Below, piece after piece: positions 27,623 through 35,465 of a DNA stretch of 64,000 nucleotides. Under the pieces are notes generated by a model. That model did not search any database and had not been told where the DNA came from. It saw only the letters and a list, made by a program, of their open reading frames with translations. Source of the stretch: an uncultured Eubacteriales bacterium (GTDB lineage Bacteria > Bacillota > Clostridia > Christensenellales > CAG-314). The stretch lies in assembly GCA_949289125.1 (NCBI GenBank), contig CASEME010000013.1, positions 7,712 to 71,711 on the forward strand, read 5' to 3'. Position 1 is the stretch's first letter. Every line of letters begins with the position of its first letter. The position numbers were made by a program, and so were the translations under genes.

Positions 27623-28691
27623 ACCAAAACAATACCGCTTTGAAAAATTCACTGATAGCTACATTATGTACCACAAAAAAGTACCCAAATTTTTGTTTGT
27701 AATAATAACAATAATTTGTTTAGCTGTTGTAGGCTTTTTTGTGTGGTCAGCACTTGTACAAAAAACATCTGTCATTAAAGTTCAAGGTGTAGTCACTGTT
27801 GAAGATAAAACGCCGTTAACTGTACTAACTAATGCAAAAGTTACAGAAGTATTTGTGACAGAGGGTGCAACTGTCAGTACAGGTGATAAAATATTGCAAT
27901 TAGACACAACAGAAATTGATTTGCAGATATCACAGTTGCAACCATATATTGATTATTACCAAGAGCATTTAGCTCTATATGACAGGCTAATTACATATAC
28001 AAAGAATAACTATTCCAAAGATGAGGAAGGCAACTGTTTTGACAAAGATGATATAGTGGAACTAGAGTTTTATAATTATATGAGTGCATTTGAAAATGCC
28101 AAGAAAGAAGCTCAAGGTTTGCCCAATCAGGAAGAGTATGTGCAACAGATAATAAGTCAGTATCTTGACAACTATTATACTCAACGCAATTCGTTGAGTG
28201 TGGAGTTGGATAAGTATAATTCACAGCTAGACAGTTATATCAAAAGTAAAGCCAATTATATCGTAACAGCTAATAGTGATGGTATAGTACACTTTGACTC
28301 TACAGTTACACAGGGTACATTTTTGCAAGCGGGTATGTCCATAGGCTCTGTATTTGATCCCAACGATAGTCTGTATGTTGAGTGCTATGTATTATCTCAA
28401 GATAGACCAAACATCAATGTTGGAGATAGTGTTAAAATAGCATTGAACGGAGTTAGTCAAAACGAATATGGCGTTATCAATGGCAAATTGAATACATTAT
28501 CTTCCAATGCTACAATGTCAGAAGATAATTATTACTATATAGGCAAAGTCGATTTAGAGAAGACACTATTAGAGTCTAATCAACAAAATATTAGTCTATC
28601 TGTTGGTATGACTTGTGAGACAAGAATAATATATCACCAAACATCATACTTATATTATTTTTTGGAGCAATTAGGCATAAAAATAAAATAA
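27612..28691 (+). CDS. HlyD-family bacteriocin secretion accessory protein
   Basis: 359 aa. It has an N-terminal TM helix (FLFVIITIICLAVVGFFVW), a lipoyl-like segment VTEVFVTEGATVSTGDKILQLD, a coiled-coil middle region and a beta-barrel C-terminus. Confidence 0.8.
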   Translation: MANKPKQYRFEKFTDSYIMYHKKVPKFLFVIITIICLAVVGFFVWSALVQKTSVIKVQGVVTVEDKTPLTVLTNAKVTEVFVTEGATVSTGDKILQLDTTEIDLQISQLQPYIDYYQEHLALYDRLITYTKNNYSKDEEGNCFDKDDIVELEFYNYMSAFENAKKEAQGLPNQEEYVQQIISQYLDNYYTQRNSLSVELDKYNSQLDSYIKSKANYIVTANSDGIVHFDSTVTQGTFLQAGMSIGSVFDPNDSLYVECYVLSQDRPNINVGDSVKIALNGVSQNEYGVINGKLNTLSSNATMSEDNYYYIGKVDLEKTLLESNQQNISLSVGMTCETRIIYHQTSYLYYFLEQLGIKIK

Positions 28692-28875
28692 ATTTTTTAT
28701 TCATTTACCTATTGACAATAGAAAAATATATGATATAATGCAAGAATATAGGTAATAAGTACCCATATAAATAACGTTCTTAGAGGCAAATTATGGAAGC
28801 AGTAAAAGGTTTGAGATTGCCTACAACTTATGTAGAGGTATCTGACAATGAGATGGAGTACCTTGATGGTGGGAT
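28440..28875 (+). repeat. copy 1 of duplicated cassette (HlyD 3' end + promoter + leader-peptide coding region)
   Basis: Aligns by eye with 29912-30329. Similarity starts at GCATTGAA(C/T)GGAGTTAGTCAAAACGAATATGGCGTTAT and runs to the GG cleavage-site codons. Confidence 0.85.
28712..28739 (+). promoter_or_regulatory. promoter TTGACA-16-TGaTATAAT (extended -10) for peptide 1
   Basis: TTGACA at 28712-28717 and TATAAT at 28734-28739 preceded by TGa. Confidence 0.65.
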
Positions 28876-29053
28876 TGGTCCAGCTACGATAGGGGCTCTT
28901 GCGGCTGTTGTGGTTATCCTTGTTGGTGGTTATTGTGTTCTTAGTCAAACAGAAATCGCACAAACGGGTCCTTGTTCTCCTGGAACAATTGGTGGCTTCG
29001 GCGGTGGTTCATTTGGTCCTGGTACAATAAATATCGCTTATTATTTCAAATAA
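28793..29053 (+). CDS. double-glycine-leader bacteriocin precursor 1 (86 aa; predicted 59-aa mature peptide)
   Basis: The leader is MEAVKGLRLPTTYVEVSDNEMEYLDGG, with hydrophobic residues at -4/-7/-12/-15 and Glu at -8. The core is IGPATIGALAAVVVILVGGYCVL...GGFGGGSFGPGTINIAYYFK. AGAGG RBS. Confidence 0.75.
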   Translation: MEAVKGLRLPTTYVEVSDNEMEYLDGGIGPATIGALAAVVVILVGGYCVLSQTEIAQTGPCSPGTIGGFGGGSFGPGTINIAYYFK

Positions 29054-29127
29054 GTTTTAACAGTTTGGTGATTTGTCACGATTTGCCAAAAATAATTCGA
29101 AAATTTGAGATATGGAGTTTATGTTCG

Positions 29128-29160
29128 TAAACCGAGTTTGACATCGACAAACTCGGTTTA
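29128..29160 (+). terminator. hairpin terminator after peptide 1
   Basis: TAAACCGAGTTTG-ACATCGA-CAAACTCGGTTTA. The T-tract after it is weak. Confidence 0.55.
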
Positions 29161-29225
29161 GTTATATTTTGTCAGCTTATTTTTTTTAAATAATAAGAAG
29201 TCGCTATTTGATTAATGGAGAAAAT

Positions 29226-29843
29226 ATGAAAACAGGTAGGCTTTCGATATTTGAAAGAAAAGAATATTTTAAAAAATTATGTGACGATAAACAAAATCAG
29301 GGGTATTTGCACAAAAAAATAGTTGCTGGTGCACTTGAGGTTAATATTATGGCATTTGTAGTAATGCTACCTTTTGTAGTGCTATTTGGTTGGTTATTCT
29401 ATTTTTTTAATGGGTTCAATGTCAAAGACATTAATGCTGGAGCGTTATCTAGTTGCATATTCGTAATAATATTAGGTGTATTTGTTCATGAATTAATTCA
29501 TGGTTTATTTTTTGCTATGTTTGCAAAAGAACACTTTCAATCGGTGTATTTGGGTTTTCTTTGGAAAGCTTTTGCGCCATATTGTAATTGTATAGAACCT
29601 TTAAAAAAATGGCAATACATTATTGCAATATTGATGCCTACTTTAATTCTAGGGTTTGTGATTAGTATAGTTGCTATAATTATAGGTAATCTTTTATTCG
29701 TCGTGGTTGGTATCACAATGATATTAATAGGGGGAGGGGATTTTTATATTTTAATTAAGTTAGCTTTTTCTCGTATTAAAAGTAGTGATCAGATAATAAT
29801 TGATAATCCTGATGAATGTGGATGTGTTGTTTTTTATAAATAG
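29226..29843 (+). CDS. polytopic membrane protein with HExxH (HELIHG), DUF3267-like putative zincin; immunity candidate
   Basis: The start was moved to MKTGRL (GGAG RBS). 4-5 TM helices. The HELIH motif lies at a helix end. Confidence 0.65.
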   Translation: MKTGRLSIFERKEYFKKLCDDKQNQGYLHKKIVAGALEVNIMAFVVMLPFVVLFGWLFYFFNGFNVKDINAGALSSCIFVIILGVFVHELIHGLFFAMFAKEHFQSVYLGFLWKAFAPYCNCIEPLKKWQYIIAILMPTLILGFVISIVAIIIGNLLFVVVGITMILIGGGDFYILIKLAFSRIKSSDQIIIDNPDECGCVVFYK

Positions 29844-29909
29844 TTCAATAACAGCATATTAATTTTTCAATTTGTAAATTGATATTGTTAAACTTTAAGA
29901 TTTTGTAAA

Positions 29910-30137
29910 ATGGCATTGAATGGAGTTAGTCAAAACGAATATGGCGTTATTAACGGGCAATTAGATAAACTGTCTGTAAATGCTATAGTGTCAGAAAATT
30001 ACTCTTATTACATAGTCAAAGTTGATTTAGAGAAGACACAATTAGAGTCCAACCAACAAAGTATTAAGCTATCGGTGGGTACGACTTGTGAGACAAAGAT
30101 AATTTATCATCAGACATATATTTATATTATTTACTAG
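29910..30137 (+). pseudogene. remnant of a second HlyD-family gene (C-terminal ~75 aa only)
   Basis: ALNGVSQNEYGVINGQLDKLS...KVDLEKTQLESNQQSIKLSVGTTCETKIIYHQT parallels residues ~277-345 of the 27612-28691 protein. The frame decays at the end. Confidence 0.8.
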
Positions 30138-30329
30138 AGCAAATAGGTATAAAAATGAAATGATTTTTTATTGCTTATACATATTGACTCATATAAGATA
30201 TGTGATATAATCTACATAGGCTAATAATTACTCATAATATTAAATTATGGAAGCAGTAAAAGGTTTGAGATTGCCTACAACTTATGTAGAAGTAACTAAC
30301 AATGAAATGGAGTATCTTGAAGGTGGTAA
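29912..30329 (+). repeat. copy 2 of duplicated cassette
   Basis: See 28440-28875. Confidence 0.85.
30184..30211 (+). promoter_or_regulatory. promoter TTGACT-16-TGaTATAAT for peptide 2
   Basis: Homologous to the promoter at 28712-28739. Confidence 0.6.
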
Positions 30330-30510
30330 ATTGCCATGGGGTAAGTTGGGTCGATGGGCCTTAACAACAGTAGGGGCTGTATGTACAGGTGTTGGATCAG
30401 GTTTAGCTACTGGCATGAGTTCTGGTAATGCAGGAGTTGGTATTTGTACTGGTATAGGTGGAGGGGTCGTTGCTCTGGTAGCATGTATGACTTCACTTAA
30501 GCTTTTATAG
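30247..30510 (+). CDS. double-glycine-leader bacteriocin precursor 2 (87 aa; predicted 60-aa Gly-rich mature peptide)
   Basis: The leader is MEAVKGLRLPTTYVEVTNNEMEYLEGG. The core is KLPWGKLGRWALTTVGAVCTGVGSGLATGMSSGNAGVGICTGIGGGVVALVACMTSLKLL, with class II GxxxG-type features. Confidence 0.75.
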   Translation: MEAVKGLRLPTTYVEVTNNEMEYLEGGKLPWGKLGRWALTTVGAVCTGVGSGLATGMSSGNAGVGICTGIGGGVVALVACMTSLKLL

Positions 30511-30520
30511 GAGGTTGAAT

Positions 30521-30730
30521 ATGAAGCTAAAAGTTGCTAACATAATTTTTTTGATATTTCTTGTTTTTGAAATATCAGTATTTCTGTATGCTAGATTGGT
30601 GTTAAATTCAAGTGTTGGTTTTGTTCCAATATTTTTAACAATTATTTTGCCTACGTTACTTATGGTAGTGGCTAATATTAATGCTAGAAGAGACAATCGT
30701 AATAGCGATAAGGTTGATAAAAAATCATAA
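30521..30730 (+). CDS. small 2-TM membrane protein (69 aa), putative immunity protein for peptide 2
   Basis: AGGAGG RBS 6 nt upstream of ATG 30521. It starts 11 nt after the peptide 2 stop. Two hydrophobic helices and a basic tail. Confidence 0.6.
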   Translation: MKLKVANIIFLIFLVFEISVFLYARLVLNSSVGFVPIFLTIILPTLLMVVANINARRDNRNSDKVDKKS

Positions 30731-30816
30731 ATAGTAATAGGAAATACTAGCATTACAATCTTTTATTCTTATACGTTGTTGGTACAAAAGAAGTAATAAT
30801 CTTTTTTTTGGAAATT

Positions 30817-30860
30817 ATTGCCAATATGGGGAATGCTCATATTGGCAATTTTCTTTTTTT
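30817..30860 (+). terminator. rho-independent terminator
   Basis: ATTGCCAATATG...CATATTGGCAAT followed by TTTCTTTTTTT. Confidence 0.85.
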
Positions 30861-30964
30861 CTATACTGAATTTATAAAGTTATTTTTAATTGAATAGAAA
30901 AGACAATAATAATGTTAAATAATAGTGTATTTTAATCAAAAAAAATTAATATGAGGAAGATGTT

Positions 30965-31684
30965 TTGAGTAGAAATAAGTTTCTATTAAGTTTGATAGGG
31001 ATAGTAGCGGTATTTATTTTATCTATAACAGCTATTGTTTTACCTTTTGTTATGTCTAAACAGAAAATAACGGCAAATAAAATATATAAATCGTGCTTAG
31101 ATAATGTTGTTGAGGTCAAAGCCGTAAGCGATGATGTTGGCGAAAGCTTTGGAACTGCTGAAATAATATCTGCTGATGGGACTATGGTTACCAATGCTCA
31201 TGTTGTTACGTACACAAAATTTGGCGAAGTAAATTTGTTTGAAAAATATTTATTCCGTTTTTCCTATGAAGAAGATTACAGACAAGCTCAACTTATAAAG
31301 TACGATAATGAAAAAGATATAGCTGTCTTAAAAATAGTTGATATAACTAATATCAATATTATTCCGATTAAAACTACTAACTCAGATTCAATCGCCGCAG
31401 GTGATAAAGTGTATGCAGTTGGAAATGCGGCAAATTATGGTATAGGTATTTTTGAGGGTATAATCAGCATACCTCTTTTAAATATCGAGGCAGAGGGCAT
31501 AACACGTGCAGTTATTCAGTGTGATTTGACTATAGCAGCTGGTAACAGTGGAGGGGCACTTTTGAATGAAAAAGGTGAATTGATAGGTTTAACAACATTT
31601 AGGACTAAAGATAATTCGGGAAATATTGTGTATGGTATAGTCTACAGTATACCCATAAACTTATTTCTTGAATACATCGGTTAA
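30965..31684 (+). CDS. membrane-anchored trypsin-like (S1C/HtrA-like, no PDZ) serine protease
   Basis: TTG start with GAGGAAG RBS and an N-terminal TM helix. The triad contexts are TNAHVV, DIAVLKI and GNSGGALL. Confidence 0.8.
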   Translation: MSRNKFLLSLIGIVAVFILSITAIVLPFVMSKQKITANKIYKSCLDNVVEVKAVSDDVGESFGTAEIISADGTMVTNAHVVTYTKFGEVNLFEKYLFRFSYEEDYRQAQLIKYDNEKDIAVLKIVDITNINIIPIKTTNSDSIAAGDKVYAVGNAANYGIGIFEGIISIPLLNIEAEGITRAVIQCDLTIAAGNSGGALLNEKGELIGLTTFRTKDNSGNIVYGIVYSIPINLFLEYIG

Positions 31685-32311
31685 TAGAACTAAATGAGAC
31701 AATTGATTAAATTTCTAGCAAAAGTAACTGCTTGTGTTCTTGCATGTATACTCAGTATACAATTGTTTTTTTGAAATAGTGGCTAAAAATATTATGGAAA
31801 AATAAATATTGTAATAATGCCGACCTATACAGTAGTTTATATAATTCTATAATAGATTTGTTAGGAATATTAAATGAATTTGAAAAAACATATTGATTTT
31901 TATGTGACTTTATGTTACAATATTATAAATAAAAGTTTATAAAAGTGGATTTAGAGAATCAATATTTATGATAAAGGCATCGCTAAAAATTTTAGTTGTA
32001 TTTTGAAGTCTATCTTAATCTAGATGCATTGTACAATTATTTTAATAATATTGTAGTTTCAATTCTTTGCACATTGGCAATTTGCTTATTTTTATATTTA
32101 AAATAATTGTTGTAAAGGAAGGTAAATAATCGTTGGAATGTAGTGCATAATGTCAATTAAATTAACTGACATACATTGTGCTCTGAAAATCAATATAATA
32201 TGATCTTTCAGTTGTAAAATATAGTTGTATACTATTTATCAAAGAGTGATAGAAGTTTAGGATAAAGGATTATTTTAATCACTTATGGGGTACCACATTG
32301 TCTGTTTATAA

Positions 32312-33520
32312 ATGATCTTTTTGACTAATTATAAAACAATTTTAGAGGATGCAAATTATGGTTGGAAGGTTAAAAATATTAACAAGTATTTGTCTATTGT
32401 ACTTGTGTTTACACTTGTAGCAATCATTATTTTAAGTAATACTTCTAAATTGGATGCTCAAGATGTAAATAATCCAATAAGAACTGTAAGATTAGCAGGT
32501 TCAGAGGTGGACGTACAAAGTATATTGGCTGAATATGAAGATGTTTCATTGTCTACAGAGCAGAGCGTTACAAAATTCACAGGCTATAGGACTTTGGACG
32601 ATTCCATTCTTAGTAATGTAGACAATGTTTCAGAAACTGATATGGCTAATTTAGTCAATCAAAGAATAAAATTTGAATGCACTTTTGACGCTCAAACTAA
32701 CATTGTAACTATTAATGCATATGCAGAATCTGAGGAAGGAACAATCCTATCTGAAGAATTTTTCGGCATAGCATTCATAAATGACATGGGAGAAGTTGAC
32801 GCAATCATTAAGATTGATAACGATGAAAGTGTTTTGCTGTCTGATCTTATGCAAAACACATTGGTTGACAATATAGGTTGGTTGGGTAATTTATTAAAAG
32901 GTATTGTGACAGTATTTGCTCCTGGTGTAGTTGTTGTAGGCATTGCTGCAGCAACTATAGTAGAAGTAACAACAGCGAAGAAGAATTACAACGAAAACAA
33001 AAAATTAGATTGGCAAGTAAATGGCTTAATTAACAATCAGTGGGCATATGACGGATGGAAATTCGGTTTAAGCACAATGGATTATAATGGATGTGGTGTT
33101 ATAGCAACCTATAATGTGATGTACTTGCTCGGTAGAGAAGAAAAGTTATCTGATGTTGCGTATGAAATAGAAAGAAAATTAGGAACTTTGGTTTTAGGTT
33201 ACTTTGGTACAGATCCTTCTCAAATTAAAGTATACTTCAAAGATAAAGGAATCGCTTGTTCTGGTACATATCTTAATAAATCTTGGTTTGAAAATGCATT
33301 TAAGAATATGAGAACGAATCAGTATGCAATTGTATGCTTTATGAATAACAAATATAATCCCTTTAAAGGAGCACATTTTGTTGCTGTCTCAAGACAATCC
33401 AACGGTAAATATGTTGTGTATAACAGCGGTTATTCAGTAGGTTCGATTACAGTTAATGATTTGAATGGTGTTATCAATGATGGGAAAGGGTTATTTTTGT
33501 CAGGTTTTATAATTAATTGA
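32312..33520 (+). CDS. two-TM membrane protein with C-terminal papain-like (C39-like) cysteine peptidase domain
   Basis: TM helices are LSIVLVFTLVAIIIL and GIVTVFAPGVVVVGIAAATIV. The C-terminal domain has NGCGVIATYNVM...GAHFVAVSRQSNGKYVVYNSG, which parallels the transporter C39 domain (NDCAAACLAM...GAGHFVVL..LDPA). No obvious SD, so the start is uncertain. Confidence 0.65.
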   Translation: MIFLTNYKTILEDANYGWKVKNINKYLSIVLVFTLVAIIILSNTSKLDAQDVNNPIRTVRLAGSEVDVQSILAEYEDVSLSTEQSVTKFTGYRTLDDSILSNVDNVSETDMANLVNQRIKFECTFDAQTNIVTINAYAESEEGTILSEEFFGIAFINDMGEVDAIIKIDNDESVLLSDLMQNTLVDNIGWLGNLLKGIVTVFAPGVVVVGIAAATIVEVTTAKKNYNENKKLDWQVNGLINNQWAYDGWKFGLSTMDYNGCGVIATYNVMYLLGREEKLSDVAYEIERKLGTLVLGYFGTDPSQIKVYFKDKGIACSGTYLNKSWFENAFKNMRTNQYAIVCFMNNKYNPFKGAHFVAVSRQSNGKYVVYNSGYSVGSITVNDLNGVINDGKGLFLSGFIIN

Positions 33521-33549
33521 TGTATTTGATATTAAGGTAGGTGCTTAAA

Positions 33550-34350
33550 ATGACAAAAAAGGACAAAGTAGCCATTACTACAATGACATTGCTTTTGTGT
33601 TTGATATTTGTATTATCGGGTTGTGTGGTTATGCCATGGACGGAAAAACACGACAAGCTTAAATTTGTGGTTTGGCAGTCTCAAGAAAATAACGATGATG
33701 TTTACATGGAAATAAAAGTGTTTGAAAATGATGTAGCACATTTTGGCACTATAGAATTCCAAGACACTCGATATGATTTTTTATTATGTTGGACGAGAGG
33801 TATATTTTCTTTCTATGATATTAATTATTATGGCAAGGCAAACGATATCAGTGATGAGAGGAAATACATATCAGGTAATTACGAAATTATCAAGGATGAC
33901 TGTGTCGAATTGACAATAAGTAAAGATATGTTATTTAATAATGCTCTTGTCGATAAGAAAATTGTTATTAAAGCTACGCCCATTGCTGAGAGTGATTATG
34001 ATGTAGCTTTGCGACAGGATGTGTGTTGGAAGTTAGATGGAGTGGCTAGTCTGTATACCTATGAGCACACCCGTAGATTTTCCACAGGTAATATAAAAAT
34101 TGATGATGACAAATATGATATAGTTATTTATTGGCTCGATAATAACACTTTTAAGGCATATGAATTGACAAATGGTGTACAGAAGGAAAATACTTTGTTT
34201 ACAGGCACTTATAGCAGTAACAAGGAAAATTTGCAGCTTAATTGTACATTTGATAATACTGCACAAACGCAAACATACAACTTAACTGCTTACAGAATAG
34301 ACAATTCGGAGAATATGCCAATAGATGAATTGTGGTACCCTAATGTTTAA
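33550..34350 (+). CDS. lipoprotein, two-domain, unknown function (paralog 1)
   Basis: Signal peptide with lipobox LSGC. AGGTAGGTG RBS. An internal two-fold repeat is visible (GTIEFQDTRYDF.. / GNIKIDDDKYDI..). Confidence 0.75.
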   Translation: MTKKDKVAITTMTLLLCLIFVLSGCVVMPWTEKHDKLKFVVWQSQENNDDVYMEIKVFENDVAHFGTIEFQDTRYDFLLCWTRGIFSFYDINYYGKANDISDERKYISGNYEIIKDDCVELTISKDMLFNNALVDKKIVIKATPIAESDYDVALRQDVCWKLDGVASLYTYEHTRRFSTGNIKIDDDKYDIVIYWLDNNTFKAYELTNGVQKENTLFTGTYSSNKENLQLNCTFDNTAQTQTYNLTAYRIDNSENMPIDELWYPNV

Positions 34351-34463
34351 TTATAAGTAAAGTACTAATTGTTAAATAGTTAGTTAAAATAGGCTATGAA
34401 GAATAATTTGAACAATATTATTACAGATGTTCACATCCTTCCCGACAGCTAAAGACAAAGCAA

Positions 34464-34492
34464 AGAGTCGACCTCATATGTCGACTTTTTGT
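34464..34492 (+). terminator. rho-independent terminator between the paralogs
   Basis: AGTCGAC-CTCATAT-GTCGACT followed by TTTTTG. Confidence 0.8.
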
Positions 34493-34664
34493 TATCTCTT
34501 GATGTGCATATATGATATGATATTAATATCTTGTATATTATTGTGGTTAGTGCAATAATACTGTGTAGCCATTGATTGTAGCAATGTCATTAATAAATAT
34601 AAATGATATTTTGTCGGGTTTTATAATCAATTGATGTATTTGATATGTAAGGTAGGTGATTAGC

Positions 34665-35465
34665 ATGACAAAAAGATTAAAAGTAACTATTCTTACAACA
34701 ACATTACTTTTGTGCTTGATGTTTGTATTATCGGGTTGTATTGTTGTGCCATGGTTCGCAAGACACGACAAGCTCAAATTTGTAGTTTGGCAGTCTCAAG
34801 AAAATAACGACGATATTTATATGGAAATTAAAGTGTTTGAAAATGATGTAATACATTTTGGTACTATAGAATTCCAAGACACTCGATATGATTTTTCCAT
34901 ATGTTGGACGAGGAGTATATTTTCTTTCTATGATGTTAATTATTATGGCGAGCCAAACGATGTAGCCGATGAAAGAAAGTATGTAGACGGTGATTACAAA
35001 ATTATCAAGGATGACTGTGTCGAATTAACAATAAGTAAAGATATGTTATTTAATAATGCTCTTGTTGATAAGAAAATAGTTATCAAGGCTGAGCCGATGA
35101 CTGAGAGTGATTATGATGTAGCTTTGCGACAACGTTTGGGTTGGAAACTAGATGGAGTGGCTAATTTGTATACCTATGAATACACCCGTAGATTTTCCAC
35201 AGGTAATATAAAGATTGATAATGTCAAGTATGATATAATCATTTATTGGCTTGAAGATAACGCTTTTAAGGCTTATGAATTTGCAAATAGTGTACAGCAA
35301 GAGAATACTTTGTTTACAGGCACTTATAGCAGTGACAAAGAAAATTTGCAGCTTAATTGTACATTTGATAATACTGCACAAACGCAAACATACAACTTAA
35401 CTGCTTATAAATTAGATAATTCGGAGAATGTGCCAAAAGATAAGTTGTGGTATCCTGAAGTTTGA
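34665..35465 (+). CDS. lipoprotein, two-domain, unknown function (paralog 2)
   Basis: Lipobox LSGC. Highly similar to paralog 1 along its whole length. Confidence 0.75.
   Translation: MTKRLKVTILTTTLLLCLMFVLSGCIVVPWFARHDKLKFVVWQSQENNDDIYMEIKVFENDVIHFGTIEFQDTRYDFSICWTRSIFSFYDVNYYGEPNDVADERKYVDGDYKIIKDDCVELTISKDMLFNNALVDKKIVIKAEPMTESDYDVALRQRLGWKLDGVANLYTYEYTRRFSTGNIKIDNVKYDIIIYWLEDNAFKAYEFANSVQQENTLFTGTYSSDKENLQLNCTFDNTAQTQTYNLTAYKLDNSENVPKDKLWYPEV

Follow-up and report, generated by a model that had tools for sequence, protein, structure and literature searches.

The DNA analysed here, a 64,000-nt stretch (the window) of contig CASEME010000013.1 from an uncultured Eubacteriales bacterium, contains two small open reading frames (ORFs), pep1 and pep2, for which an initial annotation had proposed a role as double-glycine (GG) bacteriocin precursors. 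Both ORFs begin and end exactly where they had been placed (Table 1), and their 27-residue leaders, described as near-identical, agree at 24 of 27 amino acids. The shared leader reads MEAVKGLRLPTTYVEV(S/T)(D/N)NEMEYL(D/E)GG and, counted from the GG and read directly from the translation, carries L(-4), M(-7), E(-8), V(-12) and Y(-15) at the canonical positions of a double-glycine leader. The likeness extends to the DNA, where 79/85 nt are identical (93%) and the 27 leader codons differ at seven nucleotides, four of the differences being synonymous. It is not a product of chance, because the leaders form part of a 440-nt duplicated stretch (28433-28872 versus 29906-30326; blastn E ~1e-84), along which identity is 82% in a relic of an HlyD gene, 76% in the promoter region and 93% in the leader.

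Downstream of the GG the two precursors part company: as had been claimed, neither core is related to the other, and neither was matched to a named bacteriocin in searches of 5.8 billion proteins. Core 1 (59 aa) has the expected form of a transmembrane-like helix with a Gly/Pro-rich tail and two cysteines. Its hydrophobic segment occupies core residues 1-23 (Kyte-Doolittle 19-residue maximum 2.43), the helix ends in GGYC, an aromatic residue followed by cysteine, and a second cysteine follows 13 residues later (Cys at core positions 21 and 34); the net charge is 0. Core 2 (60 aa), likewise as described, opens with a cationic N-terminus (KLPWGKLGRW; net charge +4) and is then Gly-rich with three cysteines, its extended glycine zipper running A17-G21-G25-G29-G33 and then G38-G42-G46. 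GxxxG motifs occur in both cores. No specific homologue of either core was found among the same 5.8 billion proteins, and phmmer comparison with the members of the leader family described below gave no similarity in the core, the matches being compositional only. The NCBIfam model TIGR03949, which describes the class IIb lactobin A/cerein 7B family, recognizes pep1 at 24.9 bits, above its cutoff of 21.5, in an alignment that covers mainly the leader and the first core residues.

Each precursor gene was thought to have a strong promoter of its own, and the two sites preceding pep1 and pep2 are indeed the top-scoring sigma-70-like sites in the whole island, the pep1 site being the best. The genes, separated by 1.2 kb, each have a promoter and a terminator of their own and are followed by different membrane proteins, and so do not match the class IIb layout of adjacent genes in one operon with a single immunity gene. 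The proposal that a membrane protein fitting an immunity role follows each peptide stands in that there is one after each; the one after pep1, however, is a DUF3267 protein resembling site-2 proteases (S2P) and lies behind a terminator. Behind pep2, the candidate immunity gene imm69 has a Shine-Dalgarno (SD) sequence (AGGAGG) that overlaps the pep2 stop codon, and is translationally coupled to pep2; small membrane-protein ORFs analogous to it come after related peptides at three loci (L001, L002 and L012). Between the two units lies the relic of an HlyD 3' end, which is the recombination scar of the pep2 cassette.

Table 1. Coordinates of features in and at the borders of the island (numbering from the first nucleotide of the window)
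Feature	Position	Strand	Remarks
Left 55-nt direct repeat copy	24681..24735	.	minus strand encodes a C-terminus ending in LQRIFCRLLMLFTPLL and a stop; duplicate of last 16 cls codons
PCAT exporter 5' fragment, 340 aa	24905..25927	+	C39 peptidase domain and first part of ABC membrane domain
Frameshift site	25900..25908	+	agc aaa tgg; intact relatives K-(K/R/Q)-M-E
PCAT exporter 3' fragment, 412 aa	25906..27144	+	rest of membrane domain and ATPase domain
DUF5085-like protein, 162 aa	27134..27622	+	no hydrophobic segment; overlaps ABC stop and HlyD start
HlyD/LcnD-like adaptor, 359 aa	27612..28691	+	Pfam HlyD_3 8.6e-14
pep1 promoter	28712..28739	+	TTGACA, 16-nt spacer, TG-n-TATAAT; 12/12 plus TG extension
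pep1 precursor, 86 aa	28793..29053	+	leader 28793-28873, core 28874-29050
Intrinsic terminator after pep1	29128..29170	+	13-pair stem and T tail
DUF3267 membrane zincin (S2P-like), 205 aa	29226..29843	+	Pfam DUF3267 (PF11667) 1.3e-20, 74 bits, cutoff 27.1
HlyD 3'-end relic, 75 codons	29906..30137	+	82% nt identity to 28433-28644; frame broken at end
pep2 promoter	30184..30211	+	TTGACT, 16-nt spacer, TG-n-TATAAT; 11/12 plus TG extension
pep2 precursor, 87 aa	30247..30510	+	leader 30247-30327, core 30328-30507
imm69, 69-aa protein	30521..30730	+	two hydrophobic segments; candidate pep2 immunity protein
Intrinsic terminator closing pep2-imm69 unit	30817..30859	+	
Membrane-anchored trypsin/HtrA-like serine protease	30965-31684		no PDZ domain; just after pep2 unit
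402-aa protein	32312-33520		two hydrophobic segments
Two paralogous 269-aa lipoprotein-like genes	33541-34350; 34656-35465		N-terminal ...LSGC
Right 55-nt direct repeat copy	36104..36158	.	true 3' end of cls (36107-37645, minus)

Upstream of pep1 lies an export operon. Together with the promoters and the downstream membrane proteins, its ATP-binding cassette (ABC) exporter with a C39 peptidase domain and its HlyD/LcnD-like adaptor bear out the view of pep1 and pep2 as double-glycine precursors in a bacteriocin-type locus; the initial annotation had missed that this dedicated exporter is frameshifted, and had passed over a conserved gene within the operon. The exporter, a peptidase-containing ABC transporter (PCAT), is split into two ORFs. 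Its 5' fragment matches Pfam Peptidase_C39 (1.3e-32), with the catalytic Cys and His intact, and ABC_membrane at profile positions 1-173 before it ends in a frame-shifted tail (KSKWSRGLG, then a stop), while the 3' fragment takes up ABC_membrane at positions 173-273 and continues into ABC_tran (1.6e-32). Set against an intact 755-aa homologue from a Clostridium metagenome-assembled genome (MAG), ORF1 corresponds to residues 1-330 and ORF2 to residues 334-698. One A has been lost from an A-run, so that agc aaa tgg agc stands in the window in place of the expected agc aaa atg gag, a -1 frame change; a closer relative (L012) reads through the site with ...YKRLNKKQMEQNARLN, and the gene is unbroken at the related loci L011, L012, L019 and L020.

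The lesion is present in two independent metagenome assemblies (L009 and L010) and in a Logan contig of sequencing run X1; the listed contigs of run X2 do not reach the site, and every assembly that covers it has the lesion. The two assemblies are 100% and 99.985% identical over the island. Because it recurs in independent assemblies, we regard the frameshift as real for this near-clonal lineage and not as a one-off sequencing error. Programmed frameshifting or a naturally split transporter is unlikely, there being neither a slippery heptamer nor a long A-run nor an SD sequence ahead of the internal ATG. With its pump broken in this way, the strain is most likely an immune non-producer as far as this exporter is concerned, unless another PCAT elsewhere takes over, by analogy with the non-producing 'cheater' pneumococci to which blpA frameshifts give rise (PMC3171984). 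The adaptor gene downstream carries precomputed BSH_LcnD and Beta-barrel_AprE annotations, and its product is 32% identical to the homologue at L011.

The gene that had been overlooked encodes a small DUF5085-like protein and is translationally coupled to both the ABC and the HlyD genes, between which it lies. Pfam DUF5085 (PF16895) is its sole match, at 23.7 bits over profile positions 4-127 of 141, and is likewise the only family match at E<0.01 in the 4/6 homologues that have one; a gene of this kind occupies the matching position at L011, L012, L019, L020 and L007. Word-index protein searches returned only two relatives, and searches of PDB sequences were empty. In a structural model from AlphaFold2 (AF2), poor overall, only the N-terminal half is confident, with a strand-helix-strand-strand arrangement, the unit whose duplication characterises the GyrI-like fold with its hydrophobic groove, and the weak top Foldseek matches of the model include a CTR107-derived Rho-tag, CTR107 entries and EcmrR, which we take to be GyrI-like proteins.

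Word-index searches of the 5.8 billion proteins had found only two relatives of the peptides, sharing the leader only, and it therefore took an exhaustive profile search to reveal the leader family. This search gave 83 cluster representatives, 75 of them with the motif L-(R/Q/K)-(L/M)-P-x-x-(Y/F)-V-(E/D)-(V/I)-x-x-x-E-M-E-Y-(V/L/I)-D-G-G. P(-18), E(-8) and G(-2) are invariant among the 75, and the leader positions -4, -7, -8, -12 and -15 of pep1 and pep2 are conserved across them as well. The cores, by contrast with so constant a leader, are variable and Gly/Ala-rich (median 80 aa, 32% G+A), with a glycine zipper in 41/75. Pfam PF10439 matches 16/81 relatives at E<0.01, TIGR03949 matches 4/81, and among the papers listed by a literature search for the leader strings EMEY(V/L/I)DGG there was no mention of any of the three. 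The leader family is distinct and so far without a name, no curated Pfam or NCBIfam model capturing most of it. In species-representative genomes, a scan with a four-peptide alignment found no locus, and one with an 18-sequence alignment found a single locus, L011.

Wherever a neighbourhood is visible, the gene order PCAT, DUF5085-like, HlyD, leader-family peptide and membrane protein recurs: in L011 (an uncultured Clostridium MAG), in L012 (a metagenome contig), in part in L007, and on two plasmids, pCF007-D (C. estertheticum) and pBTHD521-5 (B. thuringiensis). When the DUF5085-like protein and pep1 were each used as a tblastn query, both led to the same four plasmids, the two matches lying ~1.3-1.5 kb apart in three of them. 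At Bacillus loci annotated as cerein 7B, where the peptides have ordinary GG leaders, the ABC and HlyD genes instead overlap directly, with no DUF5085-like gene between them. This distribution suggests that the leader extension and the DUF5085-like gene travel together, as judged from a small sample of five to six loci against two. The system is widespread in Bacillota and currently without annotation; the two plasmid records inspected in detail give both the peptide and the DUF5085-like protein the label 'hypothetical protein'. An agr-like/LytTR set adjoins the L011 exporter and two Peptidase_M50 (S2P) membrane-protein genes lie downstream of the L011 peptide (L011 241-3204 and 11097-14226); neither is present in the window's island.

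The related loci also display the cassette structure. In L012 an array of three cassettes comes after a single export module, each cassette pairing a peptide with a 63-66-aa membrane protein and the middle one being a fragment; two of the peptides are near-identical in their promoter and 5' regions. Another family member, P0004, occurs in six metagenome contigs, in 5/6 of which a truncated HlyD 3' relic lies upstream; at two of its loci (L001 and L002) it has the small membrane-protein ORF downstream, and in L002 the cassette adjoins recombinase fragments. A common breakpoint for the HlyD relics of the window and of the P0004 loci was considered and rejected, the relic in L002/L005 reaching ~20 codons further upstream. 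Because the breakpoints differ, the relics represent independent recombination events in the same homology region.

On the anatomy, leader family, synteny, frameshift and cassette structure observed here, we assign a probability of about 0.62 to pep1 and pep2 being precursors of two separate, ribosomally made and probably unmodified membrane-active peptides of class II type, each with a double-glycine leader. Cleavage, export, killing and immunity can be inferred by analogy with characterised PCAT systems: the precursor would be made in the cytoplasm, the C39 domain of the ABC exporter would cut it after the GG, the 59- or 60-aa core would be exported with the help of the HlyD/LcnD-like adaptor, and the core would then enter the target membrane by way of its transmembrane helix (pep1) or its glycine zipper (pep2). 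Before export, the DUF5085-like protein may keep the hydrophobic precursor soluble and harmless. Each peptide would thus constitute a self-contained cassette, in which a strong constitutive promoter is followed by a conserved leader, a variable core and a protective membrane protein of its own, predicted to be the DUF3267 S2P-like protease for pep1 and the 69-aa two-helix protein for pep2, and the pep2 cassette would have been imported by recombination within the homology spanning the HlyD 3' end, promoter and leader.

Several observations weigh against this reading. The residue at -1 is G in only 50/75 leaders, and elsewhere (P0005-P0083) is E (often in DGEG-W/L/F), S, K, N or L. A residue other than G, A or S is unusual at this position in C39 substrates, and the cleavage rule in this family may be shifted or relaxed. 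The cores are orphans conserved only within one near-clonal lineage, so that purifying selection on them is not demonstrable. The score of pep2 against TIGR03949 is 14.8 bits, below the cutoff, and neither precursor reaches any Pfam model, PF10439 Bacteriocin_IIc giving no match even at E up to 10. No RNA runs carry the island sequence, and only three DNA metagenome runs hold or relate to it. The region upstream of pep2 (30212-30246; ctcataatattaaattATG) has no recognizable SD sequence and, since the exporter is also broken, the locus may be decaying. The DUF5085 match lies below the Pfam gathering threshold (18-26 bits among the homologues versus 30), the AF2 model of the protein has a mean predicted local distance difference test score (pLDDT) of 55.7, from a three-sequence alignment, and Foldseek with this model gave no match at E<=0.001. 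Finally, by analogy with the DUF3267 protein TmcP, the protease next to pep1 may serve in maturation instead of immunity (PMC13252029).

In its general design the locus resembles the class II bacteriocins exported by PCAT and LcnD/HlyD proteins, such as lactococcin A with LcnC/LcnD and the peptides described by PF10439 and TIGR03949. These share with it a GG leader with hydrophobic residues at -4/-7/-12/-15 and Glu at -8, a C39-ABC exporter, in the window split by the frameshift, an HlyD-like accessory protein, small hydrophobic Gly-rich cores and a membrane-protein gene downstream. The window differs in that its leader is extended at the N-terminus by a conserved stretch (LRLPxxYVEV) that ordinary GG leaders lack, in the DUF5085-like gene between ABC and HlyD that is lacking from the Bacillus cerein-7B-type loci, and in having cores without homologues on peptides that fall below PF10439 and, for pep2, below TIGR03949. 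Judged by their sequences, the peptides thus appear to belong to the double-glycine class II kind, within which the combination of extended leader, DUF5085-like gene and cassettes seems to be new. The pneumococcal blp locus, with its exporter BlpAB, offers a further parallel: one exporter serves several leader-sharing peptides, cassettes of peptide and immunity genes are shuffled by recombination in conserved leader and promoter sequence, and natural strains carry a frameshifted exporter (PMC3171984). Unlike blp, however, the window's island has no quorum-sensing module and a different leader family, and DUF5085-like and DUF3267 genes are not parts of blp.

For the DUF5085-like protein the closest functional precedent comes from type VII secretion. 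ExiAB and TipE, which are DUF5085 proteins described as GyrI-like, act as soluble immunity proteins in the cytoplasm: ExiB binds the glycine zipper of EsxX, a type VII toxin, prior to secretion, and TipE neutralises TelE (PMC12744356, PMC10434224). Like them, the window protein is small and soluble (~150-165 aa), has DUF5085 as its sole Pfam match and is encoded with a cargo predicted to be of membrane-depolarising glycine-zipper type that would need neutralising in the cytoplasm before secretion. The differences are that its DUF5085 score is below the gathering threshold, that it accompanies a PCAT/HlyD exporter and short GG-leader peptides instead of LXG toxins of the type VII secretion system, that it is present as a single copy instead of a heterodimer pair, and that it is encoded with the transporter and not with each toxin. 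By this analogy we infer that the DUF5085-like protein is a pre-export chaperone or an intracellular immunity factor for the hydrophobic precursor.

The DUF3267 protein after pep1 has intact HELIH and distal GGGD motifs, hydrophobic segments and a good SD sequence (GGAG). TmcP, also a DUF3267 protein, was shown in 2026 to be an S2P-like intramembrane protease that removes the leader of TMcins, bacteriocins with a full transmembrane helix and a loop pinned by cysteines (PMC13252029, PMC12328743); with a leader peptidase in the family, immunity is only one of two readings for the protein after pep1. It is nonetheless the one that we favour, possibly through cutting of pep1 inserted in the producer's own membrane, because the window protein shares more similarity with the copy in a Bacillus cerein-7B-type PCAT locus (36% identity over 121 aa, E 2e-23), where DUF3267 genes occupy the immunity position of GG-bacteriocin loci, than with the copy from the TMcin cluster (31% over 77 aa). 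A more tentative extension, which we hold to be possible and on balance doubtful, is that the locus exemplifies an undescribed export system for membrane-active peptides, with the DUF5085-like protein as chaperone and S2P-clan proteases as immunity factors. In such a system, the DUF5085-like protein, probably GyrI-like, would bind either the leader extension (LRLPxxYVEV) or the glycine-zipper or transmembrane core of every cargo, a task of the ExiAB/TipE type carried over to the double-glycine/ABC export route, and DUF3267 (here and at the Bacillus loci) and Peptidase_M50 (at L011) would cut helix-bearing bacteriocins that insert into the producer membrane.

How far pep1 might itself be a TMcin is a question raised directly by its neighbour. 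TMcins, peptides made by the ribosome and modified after translation (RiPPs) of the TmcA/TmcP/TmcBC/TmcE/TmcD type, have a transmembrane helix followed by a Cys-containing C-terminal part and an adjoining DUF3267 protease with a demonstrated role as intramembrane leader peptidase (PMC12328743, PMC13252029). The pep1 precursor could accordingly insert by its helix, be matured by the DUF3267 protein and close a loop through a disulfide between its two cysteines. The GGYC end of the helix with a second cysteine 13 residues on fits this proposal, as do the DUF3267 gene next after pep1, with HExxH and distal Asp intact, and the existence of TMcin-type clusters with W-helix-WC...C peptides on plasmids of C. 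perfringens and P. bifermentans. Yet TmcA is a transmembrane helix with two conserved flanking Trp, a hairpin of ~25-28 residues and two conserved Cys, whereas pep1 lacks the two Trp, spaces its cysteines by 13 residues and not ~25, and continues for 25 residues after the second. Homology to TmcA was rejected, pep1 having no sequence similarity to a clostridial TmcA-like peptide (BLASTP E 6.8). The leader and exporter types differ too: the locus has a GG leader and, as its only transporter, a C39-bearing PCAT in place of TmcBC (a separate ATPase and a 12-helix permease), and its island lacks the genes for the escort protein TmcE and for TmcD, with no DsbA gene. A terminator separates pep1 from the DUF3267 gene, whose product, as noted, is nearer to the copy accompanying GG leaders. 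We therefore consider a membrane-matured pep1 rather improbable. By gene content, loci resembling TMcin-type clusters were seen on C. perfringens plasmid pJIR3844 (L017, 501-5363) and on a P. bifermentans plasmid (L018, 389-5366), comprising genes for a W-helix-WC...C peptide, for an ABC ATPase and a large permease, and for proteins of the thioredoxin-domain and DUF3267 types; the records label the peptide and the permease as hypothetical and name no bacteriocin cluster.

Somewhat less improbable, though still unlikely, is that the locus is a decaying relic whose peptides are no longer made or secreted and of which only the immunity functions may remain useful. The broken PCAT, with neither an SD sequence before its internal ATG nor a slippery heptamer, points in this direction, as do the HlyD relic, the absence of a remaining integrase from the island, the missing SD sequence of pep2, in contrast to the AGAGG or GGAGG found at the customary distance before pep1 and before each of the eight related peptide genes inspected, and the precedent of the blpA 'cheaters' (PMC3171984). 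The single 1-nt lesion, on the other hand, suggests a recent event; the peptide ORFs, both consensus promoters and the DUF5085-like, HlyD, DUF3267 and imm69 genes are all intact; and a further PCAT encoded beyond the 64-kb window could export the peptides, in the way that ComAB exports pneumocins (PMC4739728). The initial annotation had left undecided whether the peptides act as separate toxins or as a two-peptide pair, and we favour separate toxins. That pep1 and pep2 are the two halves of one class IIb bacteriocin, active only together, would accord with the score of pep1 above the lactobin A/cerein 7B threshold, with the GxxxG motifs, typical of IIb peptides, in both cores and with a leader and export machinery in common. 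The TIGR03949 match, however, lies mostly in the leader and first core residues, and pep2 came in separately, on a cassette that brought an HlyD relic of its own. Because the genes, 1.2 kb apart, have separate promoters and terminators and different membrane proteins, and because their relatives occur singly (L001, L002, L008, L011, L019 and L020) or in peptide and membrane-protein arrays (L012), we think two one-peptide toxins the better description and a pair quite unlikely. Least probable of all, to the point of being hardly credible, is that the peptides are secreted signals or membrane-anchored proteins and not toxins: GG leaders are also used by ComC/BlpC-type pheromones and the regulatory module beside L011 would fit a signal, but the cores are strongly hydrophobic, 59-60 aa long and rich in glycine zippers, unlike short amphiphilic pheromones, the island has no sensor kinase or response regulator, the promoters look constitutive, and each peptide has a dedicated downstream membrane protein, as toxins do.

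If the cores of these two presumed class II toxins are active, they would constitute two new membrane-targeting peptides of 59 and 60 aa without relatives, and the DUF5085-like gene suggests how producers might keep hydrophobic glycine-zipper peptides harmless before export. A chaperone role, if true, would connect bacteriocins exported by ABC transporters to the recently described cytoplasmic proteins that give immunity to type VII toxins. The recurrence of DUF3267 beside helix-bearing GG-leader peptides broadens the setting of a protease family whose action on TMcins was demonstrated only lately, and the frameshifted pump offers a natural example, outside the streptococci, of a probable immune non-producer. 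For genome mining, the leader family and four-gene export module together provide a search signature that annotation has missed, and one that takes in at least ~75 cargo peptides of diverse kinds from Bacillus, Clostridium and uncultured Bacillota.

The peptide genes sit in a low-GC block (~0.32 versus 0.46 in the flanks), and the island measures 11.4-11.8 kb. It is bounded by 55-nt direct repeats, 96% identical, that duplicate the last 16 codons and stop of cls. The repeats resemble the att sites of a site-specific insertion, yet the island contains no integrase, tRNA or visible mobility gene; an Rfam scan of 23000-37000 returned no family match. Beyond the pep2 unit and the serine protease gene lies that of a 402-aa protein, whose C-terminal part, with NGCGVIAT...GAHFVAV, is reminiscent of the Cys...His pair of papain- or C39-like proteins; it has no Pfam, PHROG or PDB match, and a single-sequence AF2 model was unusable (pLDDT 39.7). 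The tandem 269-aa lipoprotein-like paralogues that follow, ~87% identical at the nucleotide level over their first 300 nt, have no family match. A Logan contig from run X2 connects 30241 with 28788 over 49 leader bases that are identical; it is probably an artefact of the assembly graph and less likely a recombinant variant. The flanks are made up of housekeeping genes, with metK, recD2-like, comF-like, secA and prfB on the left and cls, tsaD and a P-type ATPase on the right.

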